Positions 10,480-64,000 of a DNA stretch of 64,000 bases are shown here, one piece after another. Source of the DNA: an uncultured Staphylococcaceae bacterium (GTDB taxonomy: Bacteria; Bacillota_I; Bacilli_A; RFN20; CAG-826); assembly GCA_964416025.1 (NCBI GenBank), contig CAYQCJ010000001.1, positions 41,586 to 105,585 on the forward strand, in the 5' to 3' direction. The notes under the pieces are model-generated. The model made no database searches and was not told the DNA's origin. It saw only the letters and a program-made list of their open reading frames with translations. Positions within the stretch are counted from its first letter, which is position 1. Each line of letters opens with the position of its first letter. Both the position numbers and the translations under genes were made by a program.

Positions 10480-10500
10480 GGGGATTAGCAAGGGATATTG
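10480..10500 (+). repeat. Copy A of the 21-nt motif family (GGGGATTAGCAAGGGATATTG)
   Basis: Located 44 nt downstream of the 5'-nucleotidase stop, at the left edge of the helicase island. Confidence 0.6.
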
Positions 10501-10633
10501 TAAAATTAATGCTAATTATAATTATTATTTATTGCTATTTATTTTAGGAATGCTTTCGACAAGATGTTTAAGAGTTTTTTCTTACAATTATTTAGAGTTA
10601 GAAAGTGATAGAATAAACTAGGTATAAATAAAC

Positions 10634-13600
10634 ATGGACAATTTGATAAGAGCAGAAATAATTGAAGCAATTAATAATAATAATTGGATCGAAATTTTGT
10701 ATAAAAAAGATTCCGAATGCAAAGAAACTTATTTTAATATCGGTATAGAAGGAATTGATATTGATAATAAAAAGCTTAATGTTAGAATTTTTAATCAATA
10801 TAAAAGCCTTGAGGTTGTTGATAATGTTGTTTGTATTTCTTTCGATAAAATCACAAAGGCATCTAGACTTGAAGGAACATATTTTCCTTCTAGTAAGAAA
10901 ATAATTGATATAGCAAATAGTATTAAAACAAATTGGTTAAATGAAGGCTGTTTTAATTTTCAAGTATTAAAATATTTTAGAAAATGTTACAAATACGATA
11001 ATGATCCATTTGTTGACAAAATAATACAATTCGAAGGAATAAATTACGAAAATTTGTTGCAAGACAAAAAGATTAAACTGAGTGAAGAACAGTTCAAAAA
11101 TTTTATTGCAATTATTCAAGAAATTAATGGATATCGAATCAAAAACTGTGACTTTTACTCTTTATGTTTAAGTGATTATTCTATTGTAAACCACGACAAG
11201 GTTTATCCAGTTATATATTATGAAATAACATTAAATTTTTTGGACAAAACTATAAGAATTGATGGAGAGAGATTGGTAAACTCTTCTTTTGGAATTGAAG
11301 GGAAAAAAGTTTCTTTAAATAAATATATAGACGGGATTAATTTAGACTTCTTTTTGAATATTTACGAAAAAAAACGCGACGAGACGATAAAATCGATAGA
11401 AAATAATTTTGATTTAGATGAAAAATCGAACACAAAACCTTTCTTTTATATTCAAAAACGTGGGCCAAATCAATGTGTTTTTGATGCTTTGGACGCTATT
11501 GGTCAAGCTTATTATGATAACGAATTCACTTCACCAATTAAGTCGTTTTTTGGTTTTCATTATGTTTCTAAAGTTAACAACATCAAACCTAAAATTTATG
11601 TTTGTAACAACAAACAATTAAATTCTAATCAAGCTAAAATTTTGTATAGGTCTATTAAAGATGATGTTTTATATATTCAAGGCCCTCCAGGAACCGGAAA
11701 AACAAACACTATTTTTAATATTGTTATTAATTTGTTCTTAAATAATCAAACGTGTTTGATTTGTTCTAACAATAACAAACCAATTTCTGATATTTTTATG
11801 AAGATCAATAAGGTTAAATTCAGCGATTCCGAATTGTGTCTACCAATAATTAGAATTGGAAATGCAAATGTTATGGTACAAGCGGTTGAAAGATTGCAAA
11901 GTATAGTAAATATAATCAATAAAAATAAAGAAATTAAATTTGATATTAAAAAGTTATATAACAATCTTAATTGTATAGAAAAATCTTACGATAATTTAAT
12001 TTACTCAATAAAAAATTATATTGATGAGGAGTTTGTTGATAAAAAAGTTGACCTTCTTGAGAAAAATCTTAATATAATTGATAATTCTAAGATTGAGTCG
12101 AAGATTAATGAAGAGATAAATTCGTTAAAGAAAAACAAAAAGAACATTAAAAATGTAGATGTTGATTCGGAAATTAAAAGCTCCGTTTCTTGTTTTGATA
12201 ACCAAGATTTTTTAGATTATCTTAAATATATATCCTATTCGCATCTAATTAACATATTCAATGAAGAAAATTCCTATTTATTAAAGATTATTAATAATAA
12301 AGATTTGCAAAAAGCAGGGTATGAATTAAGTCAATATTTAAAAAATAGCACAAATTTGAATAATTTTTTAAAAATATTTCCAATGATTTTAGCAACAAAT
12401 TTATCTTGTGGAAATTTGGGGCCCGCAAAACCTGTTTTTTCATGTGTGATAATGGATGAGGCTGGACAATGTAATGAAGTTTCTTCATTGGTTCCTATTG
12501 TAAGAGCAAAAAGACTTATTTTATGTGGTGACACAAAGCAACTTAAACCTGTTTGTGTTCTTGAAGACTCGATAAACAGGAGATTGATGAAAGAATACAA
12601 TGTTGATCAAATATTCAATTATTTAAACAATTCTGTTTTGTCTTTAATGTTATCTCAAGACAATTTTTCTAAAAGTATACTTCTTGAACATCATTATAGA
12701 TGTGCTAAAAAAATAGCTAATTTTGCTAATCAAAGGTTTTATGGAGGCCAACTTATTTTGGACAACAAAGAAGAGGGTGTTTTAAAATATTTGAATGTTC
12801 AAAATATTAATTCAGGGAATTTGGATAGAAATGCAAATATTGATGAAGCTAGATGTATTGTTGAATTTATAAGAGACAACAATTTAAAAGATGTTGGGAT
12901 CATTACTCCGTATGTTTCTCAAGCGAAATTGATTAATTCTGAATTAAAAAAAGAGAAAATTGATGGAATTAAGGCTGGTACAATTCACACTTTACAAGGA
13001 AGTGAGAAAGACACAATTATTTTTTCTACATCAATATCCAAACGAACATATCAAGGTGGTTTAAAATGGATAGACGAAAACTATCAACTCATAAATGTTG
13101 GCGAAACAAGAGCTAAAAAAACATTTGTTTTTGTTGGCGATCGAGAAATTATCAACATTAAGAGTAAACAAGATTCTAAATCAGATTTATATAATTTATC
13201 GGAGTATGTTGCAAGCAATGGAAACACAATTGTTGTTCCTTCAGATAAAATATTGTATTCAAATTTTTCTAATGATTCTCAAAACGAAAAAGAGTTTTTT
13301 GATACGTTATCATATTATTTTGGAGCAAGAAAAAACAAATTTCTTGTTAAAAGAAATGTAAACATTAAAGAAGTAATAACAAACATAAGTGATGAAGACC
13401 TGAATATATGCAAAAATTTTGAATACGATGTTGTTATTTATATAAAAAAATTATTTAAAGTACAACCGATTTTTGTTCTTGAACTTGATGGCCCAGAACA
13501 CGCATTTAATAAAGAAACTATAATGAGAGATAAGATAAAACAAGAAATTTCTAGCAAATATAACATAAAAATTATTCGTTTTTCTAATCGCCAAACATAT

Positions 13601-13678
13601 GATTATAGATTTATATTTAATGCACTGAAATTTCAATTTAAAGGCAAAGGCGATTATTTTGACGATTTTATTTGCTAA
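10634..13678 (+). CDS. SF1 (Upf1/DNA2-like) helicase fused to a C-terminal DUF559/Vsr-like endonuclease domain, 1014 aa
   Basis: Walker A GPPGTGKT (around 11685). DEAGQ (around 12455). GDTKQLKP, ITPYVSQ, GTIHTLQGSEKD and VGETRAKK (motif VI). The C-terminal ~100 aa read YDVVIYI...IFVLELDGPEHAF...RDKIKQE...IKIIRFSN, matching the DUF559 D..E.DG..H....D signature. The N-terminal ~330 aa are uncharacterised. Very AT-rich. Confidence 0.8.
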   Translation: MDNLIRAEIIEAINNNNWIEILYKKDSECKETYFNIGIEGIDIDNKKLNVRIFNQYKSLEVVDNVVCISFDKITKASRLEGTYFPSSKKIIDIANSIKTNWLNEGCFNFQVLKYFRKCYKYDNDPFVDKIIQFEGINYENLLQDKKIKLSEEQFKNFIAIIQEINGYRIKNCDFYSLCLSDYSIVNHDKVYPVIYYEITLNFLDKTIRIDGERLVNSSFGIEGKKVSLNKYIDGINLDFFLNIYEKKRDETIKSIENNFDLDEKSNTKPFFYIQKRGPNQCVFDALDAIGQAYYDNEFTSPIKSFFGFHYVSKVNNIKPKIYVCNNKQLNSNQAKILYRSIKDDVLYIQGPPGTGKTNTIFNIVINLFLNNQTCLICSNNNKPISDIFMKINKVKFSDSELCLPIIRIGNANVMVQAVERLQSIVNIINKNKEIKFDIKKLYNNLNCIEKSYDNLIYSIKNYIDEEFVDKKVDLLEKNLNIIDNSKIESKINEEINSLKKNKKNIKNVDVDSEIKSSVSCFDNQDFLDYLKYISYSHLINIFNEENSYLLKIINNKDLQKAGYELSQYLKNSTNLNNFLKIFPMILATNLSCGNLGPAKPVFSCVIMDEAGQCNEVSSLVPIVRAKRLILCGDTKQLKPVCVLEDSINRRLMKEYNVDQIFNYLNNSVLSLMLSQDNFSKSILLEHHYRCAKKIANFANQRFYGGQLILDNKEEGVLKYLNVQNINSGNLDRNANIDEARCIVEFIRDNNLKDVGIITPYVSQAKLINSELKKEKIDGIKAGTIHTLQGSEKDTIIFSTSISKRTYQGGLKWIDENYQLINVGETRAKKTFVFVGDREIINIKSKQDSKSDLYNLSEYVASNGNTIVVPSDKILYSNFSNDSQNEKEFFDTLSYYFGARKNKFLVKRNVNIKEVITNISDEDLNICKNFEYDVVIYIKKLFKVQPIFVLELDGPEHAFNKETIMRDKIKQEISSKYNIKIIRFSNRQTYDYRFIFNALKFQFKGKGDYFDDFIC

Positions 13679-13745
13679 CAATTTTTACTATCTATAAAGC
13701 ATTTCGATCTAGCTAAATGCCGACTAAATCTGTAAACTGTTTTAT

Positions 13746-16682
13746 ATGAAGAACGACCCAATACTGTTTGATAACCTTATAAATTCTTATGTTGACTCAT
13801 CAAACAAAATCGAATCAGATTTTTTACCCTCTTTTATTTACAACAAAACTGATAGAGATGACATAAAACAAGTAAAAGACACTATTGTGGATAATTTAAG
13901 AAAATGTGACGAGTTCATTTTTTCTGTAGCATTTATAACTGCTGGTGGGTTGGCAATATTAAAAGAATATTTGAGGGAATTAGAAGAAAAAGGAATTAAA
14001 GGTAAGATACTAACAACAAATTATTTACGGTTTACAGATCCTAAGGCTTTACGTGATATTTCGAATTTCAAGAATATTGAATTGAAGATGTTTTATGTTG
14101 ATGAAAACAATACTGTTGGTTTTCATACTAAGGGTTATATTTTTAGATTTGGTGAAAATTATAAGGCCATTATTGGAAGCAGCAATATTACTCAAGACGC
14201 ATTGACAATCAATAACGAGTGGAATAATCAAATAATTTCTACTAAGCATGGGACTATTATTAAAGAGATTTTAAGTGACTTTGATCGCATTCGGAATGAA
14301 GCTATTTCGATTGATAAAATTATCGATAAATATGAAGAAAAATATGTTGTTGAATTTAAGAAAATAAAACTTGATGACAACCCTGTTATTAAAATATTTA
14401 AGCCAAATGCAATGCAAATTGCAGTTATGAATGAGTTGAATGTGTTGATTGATAGGGGCGAGAAAAGAGGTTTGTTAATCTCGGCCACAGGAACAGGAAA
14501 GACATATGCTAGTGCTTTTGCTGTTTCGTCAATTAATAAATTTAAAGTCAAGAAATTGTTGTTTGTTACACATAGAGAAACCATATTATCTCAAGCCATC
14601 AAAACCTATAACAATATATTTGGCGACAAAATTAAAACTGCTTTATTAACAGGGAATAGTAAAGATATTGAAGGGGCAAATTTTATTTTTGCAACAGTTA
14701 ATACGATTCGTGAAAAGAAAATATATGAATCTTTTAAAAAAGATGAGTTTGACTTTATCATTATTGATGAAGTTCATAAAGTTGGAGACAATTTATACCA
14801 AAACATAATTAATTATTTTGAACCAAAGTTTTTAATGGGTATGTCTGCCACACCGGATAGATTAGATCATTATGATTTATATAAATTATTTGATCATAAT
14901 ATTATTTATGAAGTTAGACTTCAAGACGCTCTTGAGGCTAAAATGTTATGTCCTTTCCATTATTATGGTATAAGTGATGTTATCGTTGATGGAGAATCTA
15001 TAGGTGATACGTCAGATGTCACATTATTAACTTGTAAAGAAAGAGTTGATAAGATTATTAAAGAGTCAAACTTTTACGGATATTCAGGCGATAGATTAAA
15101 GTGCCTGGTTTTTGTAAACTCAGTAGATGTTGGACAAAAACTATCGTCATTATTAAATGAAAGAGGCCTTAAAACTAGATTTCTTAATGGAAACGATTCT
15201 CAAGCAATTCGTAATCAATCAATCGATCAACTTGAAGAGGACGACATAAGTAAGCCTCATTTAGATATGCTTTTAGCTGTTGATATTTTTAATGAAGGCG
15301 TCGATATTCCTTCAATTAATCAAGTTATTTTATTACGTCCAACTGAAAGTTCTATTATATTCTTGCAACAAATAGGTAGAGGACTTAGGTTGTATCCTGA
15401 CAAGGAATTTGTTGTGATAATCGACTTTATTGGTAATTATGCCAATAATTACAATAAACCATTATCAATTGGAATTAGTGATAAGAGCAATCTTGTTAAA
15501 ACAATATTTAATCCAATAATTGTTGGTCCATCAACAATGGTTTTTGATCCAATTACCACAAAAAGAATCATCGATTCTATAGAAAAAGTTAATTTATCAC
15601 AATCAAAAAATATTTTAAATCAATATCAGGATGTCAAAAATAGGGTTGGGCGCATACCCACTTTGATTGAGTTTGAGCAAAACGGAAAATTATCTTCTAG
15701 AGTTTTTATGGATTATAAAACCTACAGATCGTATTATGATTTCCTTTCAAAAAAAGAAAACAATTATCAAGGAAATTTATCACAAAAACAAAGTGATGAA
15801 CTGGAATTTATATCTTATTCAATTGGAAATGGATTAAGATTAGCAGAGCCTTTGATGCTTAAATGTTTATTGGATGGTTATAATGAAAGACATTTTTCAA
15901 AACTAATGAAAGATAATTCTTTAACTTATGATAACGATGTTAGAGAGTCAGTTTTGTCCATATTAACCTTTGAATTTTATGATAAAAAAGGATTAAAAGA
16001 TAAACCATATCCAGTTATTGAAATGTGTAATAACGAAATAGTTCTAACTGAAAATTTTAAAATGGATTATCAGAATCCAGATTTTAAAAAGATGATAGAC
16101 ATGATTTTAGAATATTCATTATTTGAAAATAAAGGGGTGTTTGCGGGGTATTTTGATAATAAAATGCCTTTTAAGCGTTACGAAAAATATACGAGAAAAG
16201 ATGTTGCTAGACTAATTAATACAACCAAAAACGATGAGTCAACAATGTATGGATATATGGTTTATGAAAAGCTAAATTGTGTACCAATATTTGTTACATA
16301 TAGTAAGGAATTAGATGAATTATCTACAACTAATTATGAAGATAAATTTATAGATAATTCAAATTTTATTTGGTTTAGTAAAAGCAATAGAACATTAGAT
16401 TCTGTTGATATGAAACAATTCAAAAAAATAAATGATAATGGTGGGAAGTTATTATTGTTTATAAAAAAAGCAAACTTTAAAAATACTTCAAAAAACAAAG
16501 AAGATTCTTCCTTTTATTTCATAGGGAACTGTAAAATCGATTATAGTAAAGGTAGTGCTCCAATTAACACTGTTATGAAAGATGGAAAAACCAAGATTGT
16601 TAAAATGATTTTAAATCTTGATCAACCAGTAAAAGATGATATTTATAGATATTTAACTTTGAATATTAAGACAAACGACTAA
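13746..16682 (+). CDS. PLD-family nuclease domain, SF2 DEVH (ResIII-like) helicase and a ~350-aa C-terminal domain of unknown function, 978 aa
   Basis: N-terminal HKD-like motif FHTKGYIFRF...IIGSSNIT (around 14120). Helicase motif I SATGTGKT (around 14495). Motif II IIIDEVHKV (around 14770). Motif III GMSATP. Motifs V/VI IFNEGVDIP and QQIGRGLR. The long C-terminal extension is consistent with the DUF3427-type tail usually fused to this architecture. Confidence 0.8.
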   Translation: MKNDPILFDNLINSYVDSSNKIESDFLPSFIYNKTDRDDIKQVKDTIVDNLRKCDEFIFSVAFITAGGLAILKEYLRELEEKGIKGKILTTNYLRFTDPKALRDISNFKNIELKMFYVDENNTVGFHTKGYIFRFGENYKAIIGSSNITQDALTINNEWNNQIISTKHGTIIKEILSDFDRIRNEAISIDKIIDKYEEKYVVEFKKIKLDDNPVIKIFKPNAMQIAVMNELNVLIDRGEKRGLLISATGTGKTYASAFAVSSINKFKVKKLLFVTHRETILSQAIKTYNNIFGDKIKTALLTGNSKDIEGANFIFATVNTIREKKIYESFKKDEFDFIIIDEVHKVGDNLYQNIINYFEPKFLMGMSATPDRLDHYDLYKLFDHNIIYEVRLQDALEAKMLCPFHYYGISDVIVDGESIGDTSDVTLLTCKERVDKIIKESNFYGYSGDRLKCLVFVNSVDVGQKLSSLLNERGLKTRFLNGNDSQAIRNQSIDQLEEDDISKPHLDMLLAVDIFNEGVDIPSINQVILLRPTESSIIFLQQIGRGLRLYPDKEFVVIIDFIGNYANNYNKPLSIGISDKSNLVKTIFNPIIVGPSTMVFDPITTKRIIDSIEKVNLSQSKNILNQYQDVKNRVGRIPTLIEFEQNGKLSSRVFMDYKTYRSYYDFLSKKENNYQGNLSQKQSDELEFISYSIGNGLRLAEPLMLKCLLDGYNERHFSKLMKDNSLTYDNDVRESVLSILTFEFYDKKGLKDKPYPVIEMCNNEIVLTENFKMDYQNPDFKKMIDMILEYSLFENKGVFAGYFDNKMPFKRYEKYTRKDVARLINTTKNDESTMYGYMVYEKLNCVPIFVTYSKELDELSTTNYEDKFIDNSNFIWFSKSNRTLDSVDMKQFKKINDNGGKLLLFIKKANFKNTSKNKEDSSFYFIGNCKIDYSKGSAPINTVMKDGKTKIVKMILNLDQPVKDDIYRYLTLNIKTND

Positions 16683-17055
16683 TTAATTTATCGACAACAA
16701 TTATATCAGCAGGAAGAAAATCCACTGTATTTAGCTTGTCTTTTTCTAAAAATTTAGCATTTTCTGCTTCTAATAATTCAATGTGATCGTGTTTAAGAGA
16801 GCAAATAAAGCAATCCATGATTAAATGGAAAGTTGGATATGTATAGTCGACAGTACATAAAAATTCATCGACTTTGATATCAGCATTTAATTCTTCTTTT
16901 ATTTCACGAATCAAAGCTTGTTCGCTTGTTTCGCCAGCTTCTAATTTTCCGCCAGGAAACTCCCATTTATCTTTGAATTCTCCATAACCTCTTTGAGTAC
17001 AAAATATTTTATTGTCTTTTATAATAATGGCAGCAGCTACATGTATTTCTTTCAT
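16666..17055 (-). CDS. NUDIX hydrolase (MutT-like)
   Basis: Nudix box GGKLEAGETSEQALIREIKEELNA. Convergent with the helicase island and overlaps it by 17 nt. Confidence 0.85.
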   Translation of the reverse strand: MKEIHVAAAIIIKDNKIFCTQRGYGEFKDKWEFPGGKLEAGETSEQALIREIKEELNADIKVDEFLCTVDYTYPTFHLIMDCFICSLKHDHIELLEAENAKFLEKDKLNTVDFLPADIIVVDKLISRLS

Positions 17056-17162
17056 ATCTAAAAATCCTTTTTCTGATTATAGCATTTTAAGCTTTATTTA
17101 GCTTTCCAATATATTTTAGTTTTTAAAAAATAATGATGCTTTATAATGAAATTAGGTAAACT

Positions 17163-18176
17163 ATGGAAACTTATCTCGTTATTATAATCGTTATTGCTTC
17201 AGTAATTGTTCTTTATATCCTTTTAGGACGGTTATTTTTTAAATTATATGCAAGAAACAGAAGAGATGGATTGCCTTATTTTAAATATCAAAAATTAGAA
17301 GATTTTCCTGGATTAAATGAAGAAACATTCTCATTTGTTAACAGAGATAACTTAACATTAAGAGGATCGATATATTTTTATGGAAATAAAACTAACATAT
17401 CAAAATATATTCTTTTTATTCATGGTAATACTCAAGGTTACATTCAATTAATCCATCTATTTAATGCTTTTGCTAAGAAAGGATATGGAATTATTGCTTA
17501 TTCTATGGAAGGATGTGGAAGCAGTGATGGCAAAAGAATTAAAAATTTTACTCGTGGATTATATGATTTTATTGATGCTACTAAATATTTATCATCTTTA
17601 ACCTTTTTAAAAGATAAACACATATATTTAATTGGTCATTCTTGGGGTGGTTTCGTTGTTTGTAATAACAATATATCTACATCATTAAAATTTGAAAAGG
17701 TCGTTTCTTTTTCGGCTTTTAATTCAGAATTAAGGCTATTAAACAATATAAGTAAGATTGCTTATATCTTGTATCCTTTATATAAATTAATGTATCGAAT
17801 TAAATACAAAGACATTTATAAAATCAACTCTTTAGATTCGCTTAAAGAAACAAATATTCCTACATTATTAATCCACGGAACCAAAGATAAAGTCGTTAAT
17901 TATAAAAAGAACTTTTTATATATGAAGAATAATTTAAAAGATAAAAATAATGTTTCTTTTTTAAAACTAAATCGAGGACATGTTTCTTTTTTAAATGATA
18001 AAAGCTCTTTATATATGGATAAATGTCAAAAGAAATTATTAATTTATAGTTATTTTATGTTTATTCCATTTTTCAGAAATAAATGCAAAATGTTTGCAGA
18101 AAATATTAACTATAAAGAAGTAAGTGATTTAGATAATATTTTAATAAATAAAACAGATGAGTTTTTAAAACAATAA
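17163..18176 (+). CDS. Membrane-anchored alpha/beta-hydrolase
   Basis: N-terminal transmembrane segment. GHSWGG nucleophile elbow. Confidence 0.6.
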   Translation: METYLVIIIVIASVIVLYILLGRLFFKLYARNRRDGLPYFKYQKLEDFPGLNEETFSFVNRDNLTLRGSIYFYGNKTNISKYILFIHGNTQGYIQLIHLFNAFAKKGYGIIAYSMEGCGSSDGKRIKNFTRGLYDFIDATKYLSSLTFLKDKHIYLIGHSWGGFVVCNNNISTSLKFEKVVSFSAFNSELRLLNNISKIAYILYPLYKLMYRIKYKDIYKINSLDSLKETNIPTLLIHGTKDKVVNYKKNFLYMKNNLKDKNNVSFLKLNRGHVSFLNDKSSLYMDKCQKKLLIYSYFMFIPFFRNKCKMFAENINYKEVSDLDNILINKTDEFLKQ

Positions 18177-18205
18177 CAAAATATTTATCCTAAAAACTTT
18201 GCTTA

Positions 18206-18229
18206 AAATGCTTTTTAAAGTAAGCATTT
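18206..18229. terminator. Possible bidirectional hairpin between convergent genes (AAATGCTT...AAGCATTT)
   Basis: 8-bp inverted repeat in an A/T-rich context between the + gene ending at 18176 and the - gene ending at 18228. Confidence 0.3.
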
Positions 18230-18803
18230 ATTGTTTAGGAGCTCTTCTAGAAGCAAATTTATAAAGAACATGTAATTTTCTTAAGTTATATCTAAGAATA
18301 AGCATTGGAATTAAACTTAAAAAGCAATTAACAATTGCTATTGGAAGATTGATTGCATACCAACTTGAATATGGAGGAATTGCGATGATTGCAAAACCAA
18401 AAATTGCTCCAAATAAATGACCTAACATTCCGTAATTGGCTTCTAAAATATATCTTTTTAAATATTCTGTATTATATGGATCATCAATCTTGTCTTTATG
18501 GAAAGCAGTAAATCCTCCTAATTCAGGGACTTTATCTTTCCATTTCTTAATTTGTAATTTTTCATAGAAACTGGCTTCTTTTTTTGTGGCAGCAAATCCA
18601 GTGTGTTTTTCATCAAACCATTTATTAGGTAGTCTTCTAATAATAAATGCAAAAAGCCCATCAATGGCGATAATTGTTATAACCATAATTGATGGATAAA
18701 TTAATGTAAACCATAAATCTAAATTAAAAAAAGTGTGGAATATCGAACTAAAAATAGTAGTAATAATCGCAGTTCCGATAATTAAAACAAGGTAGAAAAT
18801 CAT
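18228..18803 (-). CDS. Integral membrane protein of unknown function
   Basis: Several hydrophobic segments. The last gene of the overlapping minus-strand operon. Confidence 0.4.
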   Translation of the reverse strand: MIFYLVLIIGTAIITTIFSSIFHTFFNLDLWFTLIYPSIMVITIIAIDGLFAFIIRRLPNKWFDEKHTGFAATKKEASFYEKLQIKKWKDKVPELGGFTAFHKDKIDDPYNTEYLKRYILEANYGMLGHLFGAIFGFAIIAIPPYSSWYAINLPIAIVNCFLSLIPMLILRYNLRKLHVLYKFASRRAPKQ

Positions 18804-24400: not shown

Positions 24401-24630
24401 TTGTTTGGATCGATATAATTGCTTCTTGTATTGCCACTTTTGGAATATGTATTTACTTAAATTATTATTTAAGAAATTTAATGAATATTCCTATAACTGT
24501 TCTCCATGCTGGTTTAAGACAAATTTTAGTTATTGCCGGAATTGGTATCATTACTGCATTTATTTCAACTTTTATTCCTGTTATCAAAACATCAAATAAA
24601 AAACCTATTGATGCAATTCATGATAAATAA
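21424..24630 (+). CDS. Fused ABC ATPase plus FtsX/MacB-type permease with a very large extracytoplasmic domain, 1068 aa
   Basis: Walker [25 protein letters not shown] signature. DEPTGALD. C-terminal FtsX-like transmembrane bundle ([20 protein letters not shown]). About 550 aa between the first transmembrane segment and the last four. Confidence 0.85.
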
Positions 24631-24632
24631 TA

Positions 24633-25147: not shown

Positions 25148-25163
25148 ATTAAGGAGCGAAAGA

Positions 25164-57673: not shown

Positions 57674-60259
57674 ATGAAAAAGAGTCTTAAATTTGCCGCT
57701 GTCTTATTAAGTAGTACGGTTCTACTTGGAAGTTGTAGTAAACCAGTTGTTGAAGTTCCACCAGTTGTTGAAGATGATGTTAAAGTAGTTGGTGTAACAG
57801 TAAGTGAGTCTGAAAATGTTGATTGTGATTATACAAAGCAACTAGAAGCAACTATCTTACCTGCAAACGCAACAAACAAAACAGTCACTTGGACATCAAG
57901 TAATCCAAAAATAGCTACTGTTGATGCCAATGGTCTTGTTTATGGTGCTAAAAATGGAACTGTAAAGATTATAGCTACAACCGAAGATGGTGGTTATAAA
58001 GCTGAATGTGAAGTTACTGTTTCTGGTTATCACAAATCAAAAACGGTATGGGAAAATTTTGGTAAAATCGAAAATAATACTGCCTACAACACAGAAGAAG
58101 GCAATAAAGATTTTGAAATTGTTACTGATAACGAAGATTATACCGAAGTTAAATTTAATCGTTCGACTACAAGAGAATGGGCTAGTTTTAAATGCTGGTA
58201 CAATCAAATAGCTGCTACAAGCCTCGATATCGATGTTGAACTTGTCCAAGGAAACTTACCAGGTTTCTTAGTTGAAATGGCTGGAGAATTAAATTTCAAG
58301 CAATTTTGGAGAGTTCCATTAACAGTTGGAACAAGAACAAAAGTTTCTTATAACTTAACAGATTACAACATTAAAAGTGGTAAAGAAGGTGATGGTAGTT
58401 GGGGATTCATGTTCTTTGAATTTGATAATCCAAACGATGGAAGCGACACAAACGGAAATGCAAATTCTGATGTTGTTTTAAGATTTCATAAAGTTCAATT
58501 AAAGACTGATACTGCCAAGAAACCAGATGTAGTAACTGGTCTTAAATATGACGACAAGTCTAAAAAATTAGTGTTTAACAAAGATACTGGCGCTTCTTCT
58601 TATAGTGTCGACGTTGTTAAAGTTGATGGATCAACAGAAACTCCATTAACATTAGAATCTCAAATTACAAGATTTAGAGCTATTGAAAATATTCCAGGAA
58701 TGAAATTAAGTTTTATTCCAAAAACTGAAGAAAATTTCGCAACTGTTCCAGGAAATTATAAGGCAAGAATTAAAGCTACAAACTCAGTTGGCGATGCTGA
58801 ATATTGCGATTATATTAATTTCACAATTGCTGAACCAGAAATAGTTTCAAGTTTTGAATCAGAAAACTTTGCTAATAATGGTGCTATGTACGCTAACCAA
58901 TATAACGTAAACAAGACTTATGCTGTAAGCAATGTTGCTAACGGAAAGAAGATTTCTTTTACTGGAGTAACAACTGAAGAAGTTGATAGTCCATCATGGG
59001 ATTCAATCTTACTTGATTTCGATAAAACTGAGAAATTCTCTAAATTTTATATGGATTTCGAAGTAATTAAATCAGCAAATCCAATTAAAAACATTGGAAT
59101 TCAATTTAATGATTGGGCTGAATCTGACCCTGAAAATAGCGATGGAAACCAAAAATTCTTTAAAGATATTACTGGAGAAACTGGCGATATTCATGTTGAA
59201 TTTGATGTAACTGCTGATTTATCACTTGGTTTAGGAAATGTTGGATTAATGTTTGATCGAACAAACAATTTAGGCGATGTTGAAATTGTTGTTAAAAAGA
59301 TCGGTCTCAAGAAAACTGTAGAAGGATATGAATCAGAAAACTTTGCTAATAATGGTGCTATGTACGCTAACCAATATAACGTAAACAAGACTTATGCTGT
59401 AAGCAATGTTGCTAACGGAAAGAAGATTTCTTTTACTGGAGTAACAACTGAAGAAGTTGATAGTCCATCATGGGATTCAATCTTACTTGATTTCGATAAA
59501 ACTGAGAAATTCTCTAAATTTTATATGGACTTTGAAGTAATTAAATCCGCAAATCCAATTAAAAACATTGGAATTCAATTTAATGATTGGGCTGAATCTG
59601 AACCTGAAAATAGCGACGGAAACCAAAAATTCTTTAAAGATATTACTGGAGAAACTGGTGATATTCATGTTGAATTTGATGTAACTGCCGATTTATCGCT
59701 TGGTTTAGGAAATGGTGGATTAATGTTTGATCGAACAAATAATTTAGGTGATGTTGAAATTGTTGTTAAAAAGATTGGTCTTAAGAAAGCATCAAAACCT
59801 GCATCAGGTTATACAGCAACTGGTTTTGCTAACGATGGTGCAATTGTTCCAAATGAATATAATGGTAATAAAACATATGCTGCCGCTTTAACTGAAACTG
59901 GATATAAATTAACATTTACTTCGAGTGTTACAAGTGATGCATCATGGGATTCGTTCTTATTAAATTTTGATAAGAACGGTAGTTTTACAAAATTCTCTAT
60001 TGAATTTGAAGTTATTAAAACCACAGCTCATCTAACAGATTTAGGTATACAATTCAATGATTATGGTGATGGCGATGCAGAAAATGATGGAAAACAACAA
60101 CATTGGTTTAATGTTGCATCCAAGGATGGCAAAATAACTGAAACATTTGATATTACAACTGATCTCAGCAAAGGATTAGGAACTGTCGGATTAATGTTTG
60201 ATAGGATTTCTGGAACTGGCGATGTTGAAATAATGGTTTATTCTGTTTCGTTAAGTTAA
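57674..60259 (+). CDS. Surface lipoprotein: a Big_2 Ig-like domain followed by three copies of a ~158-aa domain
   Basis: Lipobox LGSCSK. Big_2 segment VVGVTVSE...TWTSSNPKIATVDANGLV...ATTEDGG. Copies 2 and 3 are about 98% identical at the DNA level. Confidence 0.6.
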   Translation: MKKSLKFAAVLLSSTVLLGSCSKPVVEVPPVVEDDVKVVGVTVSESENVDCDYTKQLEATILPANATNKTVTWTSSNPKIATVDANGLVYGAKNGTVKIIATTEDGGYKAECEVTVSGYHKSKTVWENFGKIENNTAYNTEEGNKDFEIVTDNEDYTEVKFNRSTTREWASFKCWYNQIAATSLDIDVELVQGNLPGFLVEMAGELNFKQFWRVPLTVGTRTKVSYNLTDYNIKSGKEGDGSWGFMFFEFDNPNDGSDTNGNANSDVVLRFHKVQLKTDTAKKPDVVTGLKYDDKSKKLVFNKDTGASSYSVDVVKVDGSTETPLTLESQITRFRAIENIPGMKLSFIPKTEENFATVPGNYKARIKATNSVGDAEYCDYINFTIAEPEIVSSFESENFANNGAMYANQYNVNKTYAVSNVANGKKISFTGVTTEEVDSPSWDSILLDFDKTEKFSKFYMDFEVIKSANPIKNIGIQFNDWAESDPENSDGNQKFFKDITGETGDIHVEFDVTADLSLGLGNVGLMFDRTNNLGDVEIVVKKIGLKKTVEGYESENFANNGAMYANQYNVNKTYAVSNVANGKKISFTGVTTEEVDSPSWDSILLDFDKTEKFSKFYMDFEVIKSANPIKNIGIQFNDWAESEPENSDGNQKFFKDITGETGDIHVEFDVTADLSLGLGNGGLMFDRTNNLGDVEIVVKKIGLKKASKPASGYTATGFANDGAIVPNEYNGNKTYAAALTETGYKLTFTSSVTSDASWDSFLLNFDKNGSFTKFSIEFEVIKTTAHLTDLGIQFNDYGDGDAENDGKQQHWFNVASKDGKITETFDITTDLSKGLGTVGLMFDRISGTGDVEIMVYSVSLS
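58856..59803 (+). repeat. Tandem direct repeat, 2 x 474 bp at about 98% identity, inside the lipoprotein CDS, plus a diverged third copy at 59804-60250
   Basis: GAATCAGAAAACTTTGCTAATAATGG... begins at 58856 and again at 59330. Only a handful of mismatches (for example GACCCT vs GAACCT, GTTGGA vs GGTGGA). Confidence 0.85.
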
Positions 60260-60381: not shown

Positions 60382-62385
60382 ATGAAAAAAGAACTGACAT
60401 TGGCCGAGAAAATTGAAAGTTTGAGTGGTGTTGATGGATGGAAAACTGCTAATTTTGAAGGCGCCTTAAAATCAGTTTTTATGTCGGACGGTCCTAACGG
60501 AGTGCGACAAGTTTATCAAGAAATAAATACTGTTCAATCAGCATACAAAAACAATGCATATCCTACTTTATCTGCTTTAGCAAACACACGGAATAAAGAA
60601 ATGGTATATGAAATTGGCAATTGTATTGCCGAAGATTGCATCAAACAAAACATTAATATTATTTTGGGTCCTGGTGTAAATATTAAAAGAAATCCACTGT
60701 GTGGAAGAAATTTTGAATATTTTAGTGAAGATCCTTATTTAGCTGGTATATTGGCCTCAGCATATATTAATGGTGTTCAAAGCCGCGGAGTTGGGGCTTG
60801 TTTGAAACATTTTTGTGCAAACAATTCTGAATATGATAGATTTTATCAATCTAGTGAAATTGACGAAAGAACGCTTCATGAAATTTATTTAAGGCCTTTC
60901 GAAATTGCAATTAAAAATTCTAAACCTCGGACTATGATGTGCTCATATAATCCTGTAAATGGCGTATATACTAGCGAATCTAACGAATTAATAAATAACG
61001 AATTAAGATGTAGACTAGGTTTTGATGGTTACATGATTAGCGATTGGGGAGCTGTACGTGATAGAGCAAAATCATTAAAAGCTGGAATTGATTTAGCAAT
61101 GCCTTTCGATTCTAAGTTCGCTGATCAATTAAAGACAGGTCTTGATGATGGTTTTATAAAAGAAAAAGATATTGATCTATCTATTAATAGATTAATTACT
61201 TTAAATCAAAAAATAGAAATAAATAAAGACAAATACAAAATAACTCTCTCAGAAGAAGATAAAAATAAAATTGCTATTAAAGCAAGCGAAGAATCAATAA
61301 TTTTATTAAAAAATGCCGATAATTTATTACCATTAAAAAATAAGGAAGATAGCATCGCTGTTATTGGTTATTTTGCCGAACATCCTACAATTTGTGGAGA
61401 AGGAAGTGCAAAAGTTGTTCCTATTAGAGAAGACCTTTCATTAATAGATAAACTAACAAAAGAAGAGGGATTTACAAGGGTTTTTTACGAAAGTGCGTAT
61501 ATTATTAGATATAATTTAATACAGCCTTGTGGTTATAAAAACGCAATAAAATTGGCTGACGAATGCAATAATGTTATTTTGTGTGTTGGCAATAACGATC
61601 TTATTGAAAAAGAGGAAACAGATAGAGAAACAATAAATTTAAAACCTCAAATCGTAGATTTAATTAATAAAGTATCAAAAGTTAATTCGAATACTATTTT
61701 AGTTATTTATGCTGGCTCGGTTGTAAATTTAAATGAAATTAAAGATAAAGTAAAAACCATTGTTTTTGCAGGTTACAATGGTCAAGGCGTTAATGATGCT
61801 CTAGCTAAAATTATTTCTGGCAAAGTAAATCCATCCGGAAAAACAAGTGAAACATTTATAGCTGATGAGAACAATTCTTATTTTAAAAGTAATGTTGGCG
61901 ATTCATTTGTTGAAAATTATAGAGAAAAAGGCTTGGTTGGTTATAGGTATTACGAGAAAAAGAACATTGATGTTGTTTATCCGTTTGGCTTCGGCCTTTC
62001 TTATTCAGAGTTTGAATATTCTAATTTAAGGGTTAAGAAAATAAGCGAATTAAATTATGAAATCTCTTACGATATTAAAAATATTTCAAATATAGATGGA
62101 AAAGAAATATCACAAATCTATGTTGGAAATGAATTTTTAATGGTTGAAATGCCTAAGAAACAACTTGTTAATTTCTCTAAAGATTTAATTAAAGCTGGAG
62201 AAACCAAAACAATTTCGTTAAATATTGATGAAGATGCTTTTAGATATTATTCTCTTGAGACTCATAATTGGTATGTCGAGAACGGAACATATAAATTATA
62301 CGTTTGCTCATCATCAAAAGATGTACGTTTAGAAGATAAAATTGTTATTAAAAGAGATTATTGTTCTCAATATTCAAATAAGTAA
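60382..62385 (+). CDS. Cytoplasmic GH3 beta-glucosidase (BglX-like)
   Basis: FSEDPYL. KHFCANNSE. GFDGYMISDWGAV nucleophile block. No signal peptide. Confidence 0.85.
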   Translation: MKKELTLAEKIESLSGVDGWKTANFEGALKSVFMSDGPNGVRQVYQEINTVQSAYKNNAYPTLSALANTRNKEMVYEIGNCIAEDCIKQNINIILGPGVNIKRNPLCGRNFEYFSEDPYLAGILASAYINGVQSRGVGACLKHFCANNSEYDRFYQSSEIDERTLHEIYLRPFEIAIKNSKPRTMMCSYNPVNGVYTSESNELINNELRCRLGFDGYMISDWGAVRDRAKSLKAGIDLAMPFDSKFADQLKTGLDDGFIKEKDIDLSINRLITLNQKIEINKDKYKITLSEEDKNKIAIKASEESIILLKNADNLLPLKNKEDSIAVIGYFAEHPTICGEGSAKVVPIREDLSLIDKLTKEEGFTRVFYESAYIIRYNLIQPCGYKNAIKLADECNNVILCVGNNDLIEKEETDRETINLKPQIVDLINKVSKVNSNTILVIYAGSVVNLNEIKDKVKTIVFAGYNGQGVNDALAKIISGKVNPSGKTSETFIADENNSYFKSNVGDSFVENYREKGLVGYRYYEKKNIDVVYPFGFGLSYSEFEYSNLRVKKISELNYEISYDIKNISNIDGKEISQIYVGNEFLMVEMPKKQLVNFSKDLIKAGETKTISLNIDEDAFRYYSLETHNWYVENGTYKLYVCSSSKDVRLEDKIVIKRDYCSQYSNK

Positions 62386-62394
62386 GGATTATTT

Positions 62395-63906
62395 ATGATA
62401 TATAAAATTGATTTAATTAAAAATGAAGGGTTCTATGGGGGAGCCATCAATGACGGAATTTCTATGCCATATAAAGATGGCAATTTTTCACGAGATTTAA
62501 GAGAGTGGCACGGAGGAAACCAAGCTTCTTCAATTCTGGTTTCTAATAAAGGTAGATATGTCTATTCAAATTACCCATTCAATATAAAATTAGAAAATAA
62601 TTGTATTATTATTGAATCGGAACATGAAGTTGTAATCTCAAAAAACGGAAGCAATTTAAAGTCAGGATATGAGGGATTGGCAAGGGATTTTTATAAAAAT
62701 GATCATAAAACTCCTAATTTATTGATGTTTGAAAAACCACAATATAACACCTGGATTGAGATGGAATGGGATTGCACAGAAACTAAAGTTTTGAAATATG
62801 CTCATGAAATAATTAGTAATGGATATCCAACGGGTGTATTAATGATTGATGATTGCTGGTGCAAAGATTATGGCGTATGGGATTTTGATGTTGAAAAATT
62901 CCCAAATGCTAAGAGAATGGTTGATGAATTGCATAAATTAGGATTTAAAGTAATGCTTTGGATTTGTCCTTTTGTTTCTCCAGATAGCAAAGAATTTCGT
63001 GAATTAGAATCTAAAGGCTTATTGGTTAAAAAAGATGATCAAAGTGCTATATCTCATTGGTGGAATGGGTATTCGGGCGTTCTAGATTTGTCAAAACCTG
63101 AAGCAAGAGATTATTTTAACAATATTGCTGATAATTTAATGAATAAATATGGTGTTGATGGATTCAAAATGGATGCTGGTGATCCTGAATATTATCACGA
63201 AGGCTTTAAATTTGCTGATGGCAAAGAAAAATCATTTCAAGCTCAATATTGGGCTGAAATGGGTGAAAGATATGAATTTAATGAATTAAGAGTAGCTTTT
63301 AATAATAATTTAAAATGTGTTGCTCATAGATTGAGAGATAAAAATCATTCTCGGGATAATGAAGGATTAAATATGTTAATTCCAAATGCTTTAGCGATGG
63401 GAATTTGTGGTTATCCATATTTATGCCCAGATATGATAGGCGGCGGAATGGTTCCTGATTTTCATAGAGAAGGTTTTAAGTTTGATGAAGAACTTTTTGT
63501 TCGTTATGCTCAAGTGGCAGCTCTATTCCCAATGATGCAATTTTCAAGATCTCCTTGGAAAGTTTTGTCAGTCAAAAATCAAGATTATTGCCTAAATGCT
63601 GTTAATCTACATTTGAAATATAGTGATTTAATTAAATCGTTGGCAATAAATGCATCTAAAACGGGAGAACCTATTTTAAGATATTTATCATACAATTATT
63701 CAGATGTTGAATATCTTGATGTGAACGACCAATTCTTATTGGGCGATGATATAATGGTTGCCCCACAATTGAAAAAAGGAAATAATAGAAAAGTTGTCGT
63801 TCCTAATGGTGTTTGGGTTGATGAACAAGGAAAAAAATATGAAAAGGGAATTTATGAAATTGAAGTTCCATTATCACGTTTGCCTATTTTTAAAAGGATT
63901 GGATAA
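62395..63906 (+). CDS. GH31-like (clan GH-D) alpha-glycosidase, 503 aa
   Basis: LMIDDCWCKDYGVWDFD and VDGFKMDAGD blocks resemble the GH31/GH27/GH36 catalytic TIM barrel. Contains motif copy E at 62673-62693. Confidence 0.55.
   Translation: MIYKIDLIKNEGFYGGAINDGISMPYKDGNFSRDLREWHGGNQASSILVSNKGRYVYSNYPFNIKLENNCIIIESEHEVVISKNGSNLKSGYEGLARDFYKNDHKTPNLLMFEKPQYNTWIEMEWDCTETKVLKYAHEIISNGYPTGVLMIDDCWCKDYGVWDFDVEKFPNAKRMVDELHKLGFKVMLWICPFVSPDSKEFRELESKGLLVKKDDQSAISHWWNGYSGVLDLSKPEARDYFNNIADNLMNKYGVDGFKMDAGDPEYYHEGFKFADGKEKSFQAQYWAEMGERYEFNELRVAFNNNLKCVAHRLRDKNHSRDNEGLNMLIPNALAMGICGYPYLCPDMIGGGMVPDFHREGFKFDEELFVRYAQVAALFPMMQFSRSPWKVLSVKNQDYCLNAVNLHLKYSDLIKSLAINASKTGEPILRYLSYNYSDVEYLDVNDQFLLGDDIMVAPQLKKGNNRKVVVPNGVWVDEQGKKYEKGIYEIEVPLSRLPIFKRIG
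62673..62693 (+). repeat. Copy E of the motif family inside the GH31-like CDS (GGGATTGGCAAGGGATTTTTA)
   Basis: Identical over 20 nt to copy C. Encodes EGLARDFY. Confidence 0.6.
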
Positions 63907-64000
63907 ATGATTTATAAAGTTATTGATTTATATAATTACTTTAATATCAAAAAGAATGGGGATTTGCAGGGGTTTTTGCATATTTACGCTCTTGAAAATC
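63907..64000 (+). CDS. Start of a further gene (MIYKVIDLYNYF...), possibly a GH31 paralog; runs off the window
   Basis: The ATG overlaps the upstream TAA (TAAATGA). Its N-terminus resembles the MIYKIDL start of the preceding gene. Contains motif copy F at 63958-63978. Confidence 0.3.
   Translation, partial: MIYKVIDLYNYFNIKKNGDLQGFLHIYALEN
63958..63978 (+). repeat. Copy F of the motif family (GGGGATTTGCAGGGGTTTTTG)
   Basis: Variant with T in place of G at motif position 8 and no A before the T-run (GGGGTTTTT). 52 nt after the GH31 stop. Confidence 0.5.

Follow-up and report, generated by a model that had tools for sequence, protein, structure and literature searches.

The question raised by this locus is what purpose is served by a G-rich word of ~20-36 bases that an uncultured lineage of low-GC Bacilli carries at intervals of a few kilobases. 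The stretch of DNA analysed (hereafter the window) comprises 64,000 nt from an uncultured Staphylococcaceae bacterium (GCA_964416025.1, contig CAYQCJ010000001.1, positions 41,586-105,585 of the forward strand). An earlier note had described the word as a genuine repeat, and the counts agree. Exact matches to GGGATTDGCARGGGWTWTT occur seven times in the window (10481+, 24633+, 35407+, 62673+, 63959+, 49242- and 39301-), where none is expected, and the positions that the note gave for copies A-G fall within 1-2 nt of these matches. The 22-mer with up to three mismatches has four matches in the window against 0.00 expected, and the 13-mer GGATTGGCAAGGG with up to two mismatches has 12 against 0.38, a count reached by none of 100 shuffles. 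Copies were scored with a weight matrix, window matches being listed from a score of 20 upwards. The matrix found eight strong and about ten weaker copies; 18 matches score above 20, compared with a top score of 14 in the shuffles.

The extended consensus, AAAA-T/G-AA-T/G-R-GGGATT-D-GCA-R-GGGAT-W-TTG-A(5-7), consists of an A-tract, two 11-nt direct half-repeats (GGGGATTdGCA and rGGGATwTTGA) and a second A-tract. The direct repeat of half-sites had been recognized previously, but with a 6-nt spacer; GGGATT-N6-GGGATT has no exact match in the window, and the actual spacer is 5 nt, which gives a period of 11. The intergenic copies have in common a consensus of ~36 nt that reaches past the core. 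Its information content is ~41 bits over 36 positions, a somewhat circular figure because the set was selected with the matrix. The unit is not palindromic and lacks terminal inverted repeats and target-site duplications, no Rfam family is matched even at E <= 1, and the repeats of the window include no full-length parent element. The average spacing of strong copies, in coding and noncoding DNA alike, is about 8 kb; extrapolated from the window, this density would amount to hundreds of copies per genome. GC skew is strong and positive throughout the + strand of the window, which carries six of the eight strong copies.

Distances were counted from the stop codon to the 19-nt core, intervening bases only. 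Copy A (10481-10499, +, matrix score 42.3), with core GGGATTAGCAAGGGATATT and 5' flank AAAAATAATG, is intergenic and lies 44 nt 3' of the stop of a 5'-nucleotidase gene (9456-10436). Copy B (24633-24651, +, 40.8) is also intergenic, 2 nt past the TAA stop of a fused ABC/FtsX transporter gene (21424-24630). Copy C (35407-35425, +, 45.4), part of a perfect 22-mer at 35406-35427, is intergenic as well and follows the stop of a GHKL (AgrC-like) kinase gene (34031-35395) by 11 nt; the orthologous spacers of the metagenome-assembled genome (MAG) UBA4855 and the sister species L150 hold an oppositely oriented copy. Copy A shows no significant hairpin (z -1.2), copy B does not fold (z +0.2), and the spacers with A, B and C contain no hairpin terminator. 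At site D (49204-49242, 41.3) the note was right that copies are present, but the perfect one is on the - strand (49224-49242) and forms an inverted pair with an imperfect + arm (49204-49222). These arms begin 26 nt (+) and 46 nt (-) after the PhoR stop. The pair folds into a strong 12-bp hairpin with a T-run behind it (-20.6 kcal/mol, z -5.3) and is by this fold an intrinsic terminator; the sister species L178 retains the - arm alone. The neighbouring genes, including PhoR and GH31, are as named in the note. A further terminator hairpin on the - strand (41934-41952; AATAACGCC-TGCCAATC-GGCGTTATT then T7; matrix 23.7, z -3.1) may be a re-used copy, since the motif can be recognized in its loop and in the flanking bases. 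In L178 one of its stem pairs is changed on both sides and still pairs as a U-G wobble, and the orthologous spacer of UBA4855 and L150 has a true copy.

Other copies lie within genes. Copy G (39283-39301, -, 45.8) is antisense in a metallo-beta-lactamase-fold gene (38800-39600), and its core is 100% identical in an 83%-identical species (L125/L178), where the flanks are 79% identical. Copy E (62673-62691, +, 40.5), in sense within the GH31 gene, encodes E-G-L-A-R-D-F in a variable protein segment using the rare codons TTG and AGG; it is kept in the sister species L120 with a core identity of 0.95 against 0.73 for the flanks. Copy F (63959-63977, +, 46.1) had been placed inside the next open reading frame, which the L120 orthologue confirms: it is in sense in an esterase gene starting at 63907, encodes G-D-L-Q-G-F-L with the rare codons GGG (twice), CAG and TTG, and is kept in L120 and missing from L122. 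The earlier list of copies was incomplete. It lacked a strong copy inside a GH3 gene (61467-61485, +, 37.9; peptide E-G-F-T-R-V-F), partly kept in L120, an intermediate copy (4953-4971, +, 31.1) that bridges the stop of 4055-4945 and the ATG of 4963-7878, and about eight more at 20-28. Weak copies include one in pstA (44863-44881, +, 27.2; K-E-G-R-L-T-R-V-F), which in L178 has an R-to-G change that brings it nearer to the motif (34.0), one inside phoR (48796-48814, +) and those at 5970+, 16136+, 56187+ and 56655+, the last five scoring within 21-28. Of two less certain entries in the list, H is indeed a degenerate copy (5408-5426, -, 23.7), whereas I (46377) scores below 20.

Gene context was classified for 46 strong non-redundant copies, and orientation for 44 of these. 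Intergenic DNA holds 63% of the 46 and genes ~37%, in sense and antisense; the proposed preference for sites 3' of stop codons covers only some of the copies. Among the intergenic copies, 19 of 29 lie 2-50 nt past the stop of a co-oriented gene, some copies abut TAA stop codons, and co-orientation is favoured by ~2:1. By scripted count 31 of the 44 are co-oriented with the local gene, in keeping with the note. Copies lie between stop codon and terminator, and in UBA4855 they adjoin or sit in terminator hairpins, many of them beside a separate complete one. At one gene end that carries the motif in L120, the orthologous site of a sister species devoid of the motif is occupied by a classical hairpin. 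The G-blocks of the word resemble Shine-Dalgarno sequences and are used as one in L041 and L072.

The intragenic copies fit their proteins without a gap, copy E against 19 GH31 homologues and a GuaA copy against PDB homologues, which indicates that they arose by substitution and not by insertion. Rare codons are used in the copies (GGG 6%, CAG 5%, AGG 7%, TTG 13%). Synonymous-codon shuffles left ~0 matches, three such copies scoring at least 35; copy F was set aside from this result because its 31-codon fragment could not be shuffled. When codon order was shuffled, no match scored above 20, compared with 11 observed. Few reading frames are preferred: eight of 12 sense copies read G-[FL]-A-[GR]-D-[FI] and four D-L-Q-G-[FI], while three of five antisense copies read x-[PL]-A-N-[PS]. 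The rare codons and the codon shuffles place the constraint on the copies at the DNA level.

A search of 596 Gb of genomes with the GGGATTDGCARGGGWTWTT-type pattern returned ~100 singletons, chance level by our own estimate, as were 13 singletons in viral contigs. Multiple matches were found in UBA4855 (at least 16, in 14 blocks on eight contigs), which is only ~81% identical to the window, and in the MAG RUI474 (three); a 46% GC Bacilli MAG is among the carriers. Three sister species carry it (L120, L125/L178 and L150), and a fourth, 69% identical (L122/L123), has no copy in 26.8 kb despite equal GC content and gene order. The enrichment is thus not local to the window, as the note had expected, since it extends to eight contigs of a related MAG and to sister species from other samples. 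The word, ~36 bp long, is a DNA 'signature word' specific to this lineage and spread over the whole genome. Between species its core is more conserved than the flanks (0.95-1.00 versus 0.73-0.79, antisense copy G included). All five copies compared between UBA4855 and L150 (86% identity) are positionally orthologous, so that no insertion polymorphism was seen among them. Two orthologous spacers show flipped copy orientation between species, which, with the single D arm of L178, fits pairs decaying differently by lineage. Comparison of 99.5%-identical strains shows an 8.7-fold higher density of substitutions in motif columns (10/400 versus 177/60,397), and individual copies therefore decay quickly.

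Several explanations could account for such a word. The pattern could be a side effect of base composition, codon usage or chance, and some weak matches would agree with this, since they coincide with natural peptide motifs (PstA KEGRLTRV, GuaA AGLxRDIWQ) or with a Shine-Dalgarno sequence followed by a start codon. For the strong copies this reading is refuted by the shuffles, which gave no exact match and none above 20 in codon order, and by the copy-free sister species of the same composition; overall it has almost no probability. The word could instead be the site of a sequence-specific DNA-binding protein that has a role wherever it binds, the copies being kept by ordinary selection. Such a protein would sit as a tandem dimer across both 11-bp half-repeats and would serve as a transcription roadblock at gene ends or as a nucleoid or supercoiling organizer. 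The hexamer-N5-hexamer repeat between phased A-tracts favours this, as do the post-stop positions, the hairpin-free spacers of A-C, the scarcity of terminator-like hairpins in positions 1-20000 of the window (two versus 5.9 in shuffles), the classical hairpin of the motif-free sister and the conservation of copies above their flanks. OmpR/PhoB-family boxes (PhoP, WalR) similarly have two direct hexamers with an 11-bp period (GGGATT-N5-GGGATT); however, they lie upstream of promoters, a genome has a few tens of them, and the bases between their hexamers are not conserved, whereas the spacer of the word is conserved and its sites, by extrapolation hundreds per genome, are past or inside genes. 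A protein site of this kind is the main rival of the reading that we favour, but we regard it as unlikely, as over a third of strong copies are intragenic, in both orientations, and are conserved at a cost in rare codons and amino acids, a roadblock within genes would be harmful, many UBA4855 copies adjoin a complete terminator, orientation flips at orthologous spacers and turnover between strains is rapid. A selfish short repeat of REP/RAYT or MITE type, propagated through an enzyme of its own or through ectopic gene conversion, with in-gene copies as conversion products at already similar sites, is quite unlikely. It would explain the consensus beyond the core, both orientations in the same spacer, inverted pair D, strain-level change and the abutted TAA stops, a possible insertion target. 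Against it stand the non-palindromic unit without terminal repeats or target-site duplications, the absence of a parent element, the unchanged length of genes with copies, the orthologous positions in UBA4855 and L150 and a unit too short for homology-driven conversion. REP/BIME of Enterobacteria and BOX/RUP/SPRITE of pneumococcus are likewise short, abundant intergenic repeats past stops, in both orientations and often beside or acting as terminators, but they are palindromic or modular structured, strictly extragenic and spread by insertion. The word is a direct repeat whose single copies are unfolded (z -1.2 to +0.2), and the REP/BOX-type role suggested in the note is not supported; for the intragenic copies, a REP/MITE-type insertion element is ruled out by their origin through substitution without length change, and such an element could account only for the intergenic ones.

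Two further readings are improbable. An RNA element in mRNA 3' UTRs and coding regions, bound by a protein (at two GGA/Shine-Dalgarno-like sites 11 nt apart) or targeted by a C-rich small RNA, would affect 3'-end stability, processing or ribosome capture. The sense bias, the copies between stop codon and terminator and the Shine-Dalgarno-like G-blocks agree with it. The 3'-end RNA role offered in the note is disfavoured by the perfect interspecies conservation of antisense intragenic copies, the antisense perfect arm of pair D, the lack of structure and of an Rfam match and the conservation of at least 20 nt, beyond typical protein-RNA sites. The other, with a similarly slim chance, puts the word in the Chi or KOPS/SRS class, as a polar signal for chromosome maintenance carried by the G-rich leading strand. 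Chi is a recombination hotspot, and KOPS (GGGNAGGG) and SRS (GAGAAGGG) direct FtsK/SpoIIIE translocases. Like these octamers the word is G-rich and occurs in genes and spacers, for the most part on the strand that is leading or sense. Its sequence includes GAAGGGGG and GCAGGGG, reminiscent of SRS and KOPS, and its density is comparable to that of Chi in E. coli. However, known members have 5-8 nt against 19-36 nt for the word, and neither the stop-codon enrichment nor the inverted pairs are expected of them. Orientation agrees with GC skew in only ~72% of strong copies and follows the local gene at least as well (~87%, both by hand tally; 70% by script), and several strong copies (window 39283, L075 4112 and L038 6250) oppose both.

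Among the roles listed in the note, a DNA-uptake-like signal fits all of the features found best, and we tentatively favour, at less than even confidence, a DNA-level transfer-bias signal. Its nearest counterparts are the uptake signals of Pasteurellaceae (USS) and Neisseriaceae (DUS), also short, clade-wide and genome-wide words with variants between relatives, coding copies gained by substitution, frame and orientation bias, strong enrichment past genes and inverted pairs as intrinsic terminators; Hin-USS similarly has a G/C-rich core between helically phased A/T tracts. USS and DUS occur about once per 1-1.2 kb. Cyanobacterial HIP1 (GCGATCGC) is another hyper-abundant word of coding and noncoding DNA, retained at orthologous sites more than neutrality would predict, from an unresolved cause, but it is an 8-bp palindrome tied to methylation, whereas the present word is a direct repeat, asymmetric and 20-36 bp long. 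Terminators contain about half of all uptake signals, which also show frame bias (bioRxiv 10.1101/2025.10.24.684340); the signals are orientation-biased inside genes (PMC2346458) and come in species-specific dialects (PMC3630211).

As a transfer-bias signal, the word would work as double-stranded DNA rather than RNA, recognized by a sequence-specific protein of the DNA-transfer machinery, most plausibly the competence DNA-uptake apparatus. Fragments bearing it would be preferentially transferred and recombined, and the word would accumulate and persist by point substitution where sequence is tolerant, in the variable parts of proteins, restricted to a handful of permissive frames, and above all in spacers past stop codons. 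Intergenic copies could later be re-used, inverted pairs as intrinsic terminators and G-blocks as ribosome-binding sites. Against this reading, the core consists of tandem half-repeats over 19-22 nt, where USS and DUS have a single core of 9-12 nt, the information content is far above that of USS or DUS, the density of strong copies is ~5-8 times lower and individual copies decay fast among strains. Gene co-orientation is also stronger and is not predicted by simple uptake, although the constraints of coding, together with the strong skew in GC, may explain it. The host of the word belongs to a Gram-positive phylum without described uptake specificity; to our knowledge, model Gram-positive competence is sequence-independent. 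Published surveys place uptake signals only in Pasteurellaceae and Neisseriaceae, and none in Bacillota (PMC13020248). If the favoured reading is true, Bacillota would have an uptake-type signal, a class so far named only from two Gram-negative families.

The G-rich repeated word proved to be a real feature of the window. A degenerate 19-mer, GGGATTDGCARGGGWTWTT, has seven exact matches (10481+, 24633+, 35407+, 62673+, 63959+, 49242− and 39301−) against approximately zero expected, and these recover all of the copies labelled A (after the 5'-nucleotidase gene), B (after the ABC/FtsX transporter gene), C (after the AgrC-like kinase gene), E (inside the GH31 gene), F (inside the esterase gene), D (after phoR) and G (antisense inside a metallo-β-lactamase-fold gene), respectively. 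The 22-mer given in the earlier note has four matches in the window at up to three mismatches (0.00 expected), and the central 13-mer has 12 at up to two mismatches (0.38 expected, with no shuffle as high). A weight matrix trained on the exact copies from the window and one related genome returned 18 copies in the window, of which eight were strong (score above 35), one was intermediate and about nine were weak, compared with a maximum score of 14 in shuffled sequence. Two further copies that had been listed, H and I, scored only as weak, while two copies had been missed, a strong one within GH3 (61467) and one lying across a stop/start junction (4953). The identities previously assigned to the neighbouring genes were reproduced, as was the placement of copy F in the gene following GH31, an esterase starting at 63907. 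The proposed half-site spacing of six nucleotides was incorrect, giving zero matches; the actual arrangement is GGGATT-N5-GGGATT with a period of 11 nt. The flanks of the copies are unrelated to each other, which excludes a single locally duplicated segment, as had been anticipated.

The consensus was derived from 47 strong copies pooled over all low-GC loci, with a few near-identical strain duplicates remaining after filtering, and reads AAAA-(T/G)-AA-(T/G)-(G/A)-GGGATT-(T/G/A)-GCA-(A/G)-GGGAT-(T/A)-TTG-AAAAAAA. It holds about 41 bits of information over 36 positions, a value that is inflated since the set was chosen by the same matrix. Structurally, two 11-nt units (GGGGATTTGCA/GGGGATTTTGA) repeat directly in tandem between A-tracts, and the word is not palindromic. 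The single copies A, B and C fold no better than shuffled sequences (z of −1.2, +0.2 and −0.5). Pair D, the only clear inverted pair in the window, forms a 12-bp stem (−20.6 kcal/mol, z of −5.3) followed by a T-run and is a textbook intrinsic terminator. The features of such terminators, a G+C-rich hairpin and a U-run, are present at pair D and at a motif-like hairpin at 41934 and are absent at single copies A, B and C. A search of Rfam 15 gave no match in the window at gathering thresholds and none over any copy even at E ≤ 1, and the window contains no tRNA genes; tRNA, tmRNA and known RNA families were accordingly rejected as identities for the word.

Other repeats were seen in the window. 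A 300-nt direct repeat (58855–59154 and 59329–59628, 98% identical) lies within the ORF at 57674–60259 (861 amino acids), with a third, more diverged match of 30 nt at 60173, and looks like a recently duplicated protein module. The ORF at 25764–28946 (1060 amino acids) contains diverged repeat modules with a spacing of 714–954 nt and 65–76% identity, and probably encodes a repetitive surface protein; there are no motif copies between 24651 and 35407. The preceding 616 nt (25148–25763), nominally intergenic, seems to encode the N-terminal portion of a TetR-like regulator, broken by a stop codon or frameshift, and is a probable pseudogene as judged from its sequence.

The pattern was sought in a genome scan covering one genome per species (596 Gb), which returned at least 102 stretches, nearly all of them singletons among the matches listed; about 100 chance matches are expected in 596 Gb by our own estimate. 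The MAG 'Bacillales bacterium UBA4855', which is about 81% identical to the window over syntenic parts, has at least 16 matches in at least 14 blocks on at least eight contigs. At least three stretches were found in the MAG RUI474 (Bacilli, 44–49% GC) and at least one in a sheep-rumen Bacilli MAG; the word is therefore also present in a Bacilli genome of much higher GC content. One RUI474 copy (locus L041, 4226–4244, 49% GC) fills the whole spacer from the TAG stop of a sufB-like gene to the ATG of mnmG, with its second G-block 5 nt upstream of the mnmG start, in the position of a ribosome-binding site. Exact contigs of the window organism were found in three JGI metagenomes and one SRA run, and a stricter 20-mer scan of metagenomes identified low-GC carriers in two samples (Ga0172377/8) and one human-gut contig. 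MAGs related to the window organism include sheep-rumen and human-gut records. Fetching orthologous loci yielded three more sister species: L120 (76% identical to the window, with four copies in 9.8 kb), L125/L178 (83% identical) and L150 (82–86% identical, with five copies in 11.9 kb). A further relative, L122/L123 (Logan SRR27710308/9), shares the gene order and the GC content of 29% at 69% nucleotide identity, and nothing in its 26.8 kb reaches a motif score above 20. It is a natural negative control that is useful toward finding a trans-acting factor. Viral contigs contained 13 singletons only, which is consistent with chance and speaks against a phage origin. The word is thus genome-wide and clade-specific rather than local.

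Most of the 46 strong non-redundant copies are intergenic (29, or 63%) and the other 17 (37%) lie in genes, the intergenic share of the DNA being roughly a tenth according to the ORF map. Nineteen intergenic copies directly follow the end of a co-oriented gene, often at a distance of 2–20 nt, and the A-rich 5' flank frequently itself provides the TAA stop. Eight others are arranged differently, some inverted behind the end of a gene and some placed in a divergent spacer. Overall, 31 of 44 copies run with the sense strand of the gene. The relationship to terminators is varied. Many copies in UBA4855 immediately adjoin, on the 5' or 3' side, a separate hairpin terminator, and in some the terminator itself is made by pairing of the second half-repeat and a AAAATCCC located downstream. 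The operon-end spacers holding single copies A, B and C (10437–10633, 24631–24793 and 35396–35490) contain no other significant hairpin, and canonical terminator-like hairpins are scarce at 1–20000 (two, both on the − strand, versus 5.9 in shuffles). In the motif-free L122/L123 a classical hairpin terminator is found at the gene end where L120 has a motif copy.

A terminator hairpin after the GGDEF gene (41928–41975) consists of AATAACGCC-TGCCAATC-GGCGTTATT with a T7 tail. The loop reads as the motif centre (GATTGGCA) in reverse complement, the flanks match those of the motif, and the hairpin scores 23.7 with the matrix (− strand). One pair of the stem is altered on both sides in L178 and is still paired as a U-G wobble, and the loop there varies only at the variable position of the motif. 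The orthologous spacers in UBA4855 and L150 contain a true copy in the opposite orientation. The hairpin may be a motif copy that has been remodelled.

Judged from alignments of the encoded proteins, the copies in genes arose by substitution, without change of length and at a cost. The GH31 protein aligns without gaps to 19 homologues at copy E, in a segment that varies across the family (AYLGLVNDFF or the like in the homologues versus GYEGLARDFY here). The GuaA copy of UBA4855 likewise falls in a gap-free alignment to solved GMP synthases and sits between conserved blocks. These copies use rare codons (GGG, 6% of Gly; CAG, 5% of Gln; AGG, 7% of Arg; TTG, 13% of Leu). When synonymous codons were shuffled within genes essentially every copy was lost except for F, which lies in a 31-codon ORF fragment and is not shufflable, and shuffling of codon order gave no match above 20 versus 11 observed. 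Chance and codon usage are excluded by these shuffles together with the mismatch and shuffle counts and the motif-free sister species. The 12 sense copies are distributed among the reading frames as 8, 4 and 0, with eight encoding G-[FL]-A-[GR]-D-[FI] in one frame, four encoding D-L-Q-G-[FI] in another and none in the third; three of the five antisense copies encode x-[PL]-A-N-[PS]. In pstA (44863–44881) the window encodes K-E-G-R-L-T-R-V-F and the 83% identical L178 (7356) K-E-G-G-L-T-R-V-F. With G in place of R the motif score is 34 instead of 27, nearer to the consensus, and the change may illustrate how the word comes to be written into a protein that is conserved.

Between species that are 76–86% identical, the motif cores are better conserved than their 100-nt flanks. 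The core identity is 0.95 for copies E and F (flanks 0.73–0.74), 1.00 for the antisense copy G (flanks 0.79) and 0.76–0.90 for the intergenic copies (flanks 0.42–0.76). The conservation of antisense copies, together with the antisense orientation of the perfect arm in pair D, argues for a constraint on DNA rather than on mRNA. All five copies compared are positionally orthologous between UBA4855 and L150. At two orthologous spacers, one following the AgrC-like kinase gene and the other a GGDEF gene, orientation in the window is opposite to that in UBA4855/L150, and the inverted pair that follows phoR in the window is represented in L178 by the antisense arm alone. Most simply, intergenic copies would tend to occur as inverted pairs, with each arm gained or lost on its own.

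Between strains that are 99.5% identical (L028 versus L176, L101 versus L127 and L072 versus L175), substitutions are 8.7 times denser in motif columns (10/400 versus 177/60,397; Fisher p = 5e-7). Polarization with an outgroup showed three strain substitutions in the motif to be departures from the consensus. Individual copies would therefore decay fast while the family persists, although the events are few (about six). The fast change between strains is compatible with neutral decay of a G-rich, unconstrained intergenic spacer in an AT-rich genome. Substitutions between strains are often closely paired, at distances of up to 35 nt; the paired and dense changes could stem from short-patch recombination, from a mutational hotspot or from MAG consensus noise.

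The known sequences that most resemble the word in behaviour are the uptake signals of the Pasteurellaceae (USS) and Neisseriaceae (DUS). Like these, the word is hyper-represented genome-wide in one clade (in the window and UBA4855), has coding copies acquired via substitution with a bias of frame and orientation, and is enriched in or near terminators, with inverted pairs serving as terminator stems. Approximately half of the uptake signals surveyed in 177 genomes lie in predicted terminators, with a clear frame bias (bioRxiv 10.1101/2025.10.24.684340), and uptake signals show an orientation bias within genes (PMC2346458). The word is, however, unrelated in sequence to the USS (AAGTGCGGT) and DUS (GCCGTCTGAA) cores, and its host belongs to the Bacilli rather than to either of those families. 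Given these differences of sequence and host, it is an analogue and not a member of the USS/DUS families.

We tentatively suggest that the word may be a DNA-transfer-bias signal, most plausibly for competence uptake. This proposal comes from the pattern as a whole: a clade-specific, genome-wide word that occupies tolerant coding segments in preferred frames, follows genes, forms terminator pairs and combines a G-rich core with phased A/T tracts. The word would be read as double-stranded DNA by a component of the DNA-transfer machinery, most plausibly that of competence uptake, and would be maintained through biased transfer and recombination, with copies secondarily re-used as terminator arms and ribosome-binding sites. 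Known uptake signals, which occur in hundreds to thousands of copies, are required for competent cells to take up DNA or be transformed efficiently; in Neisseria their cognate receptor is ComP. Weighing against the proposal, the word is longer and rarer than USS and DUS, 31 of 44 copies follow the sense strand, and published surveys name uptake signals only in the Pasteurellaceae and Neisseriaceae, both Gram-negative (PMC13020248). A more doubtful claim is that the word is the first signal of its kind, for sequence-specific DNA uptake or some other transfer bias, from a Gram-positive phylum, and that this uncultured low-GC Bacilli clade uses its 36 bipartite base pairs to favour the clade's own DNA in natural transformation; if true, a sequence-reading DNA receptor of a new kind would be implied in the Gram-positive competence apparatus.

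Several of the same observations could be explained differently. The tandem half-sites and their placement behind stop codons would suit the site of a DNA-binding protein that functions at gene ends, either as a roadblock terminator or as an organizer of the nucleoid or of supercoiling. So would the hairpin-free spacers of A, B and C, and the classical hairpin that the motif-free species has at an orthologous gene end. Such a site would not account for the conservation of in-gene copies or for the many copies adjoining separate, complete terminators, and we regard it as unlikely. A selfish repeat spread by conversion or by a dedicated enzyme seems less likely again: the long consensus common to intergenic copies and the flips of orientation speak for it, whereas no evidence of insertion was found among the sites compared. 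The strand bias, and little else, favours either an RNA element or a polar word of the Chi/KOPS type, and we consider both improbable. The former is disfavoured by the conserved antisense copies and matches no known RNA family. The latter class (Chi, KOPS and SRS) comprises words of 5–8 nt with at least about 75–90% co-orientation with replication, compared with 19–36 nt here, and about 72% of the copies agree with the GC skew in a hand tally, no better than with gene direction.

Other identities were rejected. The REP/BOX kind of repeat suggested in the earlier note does not fit, the unit being neither palindromic nor confined to spacers. REP/BIME elements mobilized by RAYT are strictly extragenic, whereas 17 of 46 strong copies are in genes; the unit is also a direct repeat rather than an imperfect palindrome, and the singles A, B and C fold no better than shuffles. 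MITE-like insertion is excluded for in-gene copies by the gap-free GH31 and GuaA alignments and is unsupported for intergenic copies, all five being orthologous between UBA4855 and L150 in a comparison of few spacers; no terminal inverted repeats or target-site duplications were seen at the copies. Solitary IS-element ends were rejected because none of the longer repeats in the window is flanked by the word, and any resemblance to IS6 ends is weak. No CRISPR arrays occur in the window, so that solitary CRISPR repeats were also discarded. A sigma-54 promoter (TGGCAC-N5-TTGC) would need GG and GC to stand 2 nt closer together, and GG or TTGC is missing in most copies. Sigma-70 and sigma-H promoters were discarded because neither a −10 element nor the distance to downstream starts is consistent among the copies. 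A micro-ORF, MGI(C/G)(R/K)GF-stop, fails because the ATG position varies (ATG, ATA, AGT or AAG), and an extension by stop-codon read-through fails because the frame relative to the upstream gene varies.

Within the literature library searched, the sequence of the word gave an unrelated primer as its sole match. By analogy, the word appears to be a further hyper-represented word of the USS/DUS type, new both in its phylum and in its bipartite architecture. If it does serve DNA uptake or biased transfer, the textbook confinement of sequence-selective uptake to two Gram-negative families would be overturned, a new type of DNA receptor would be indicated, and this uncultured group of Bacilli would gain a handle for genetic manipulation. 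Should it prove to be a site for protein binding at gene ends, it would represent an unusual factor-based marking of the ends of transcription units in a bacterium. Either way, it provides a practical marker with which to bin and track the lineage in metagenomes, and a clear natural case of a DNA-level force rewriting proteins and imposing rare codons.
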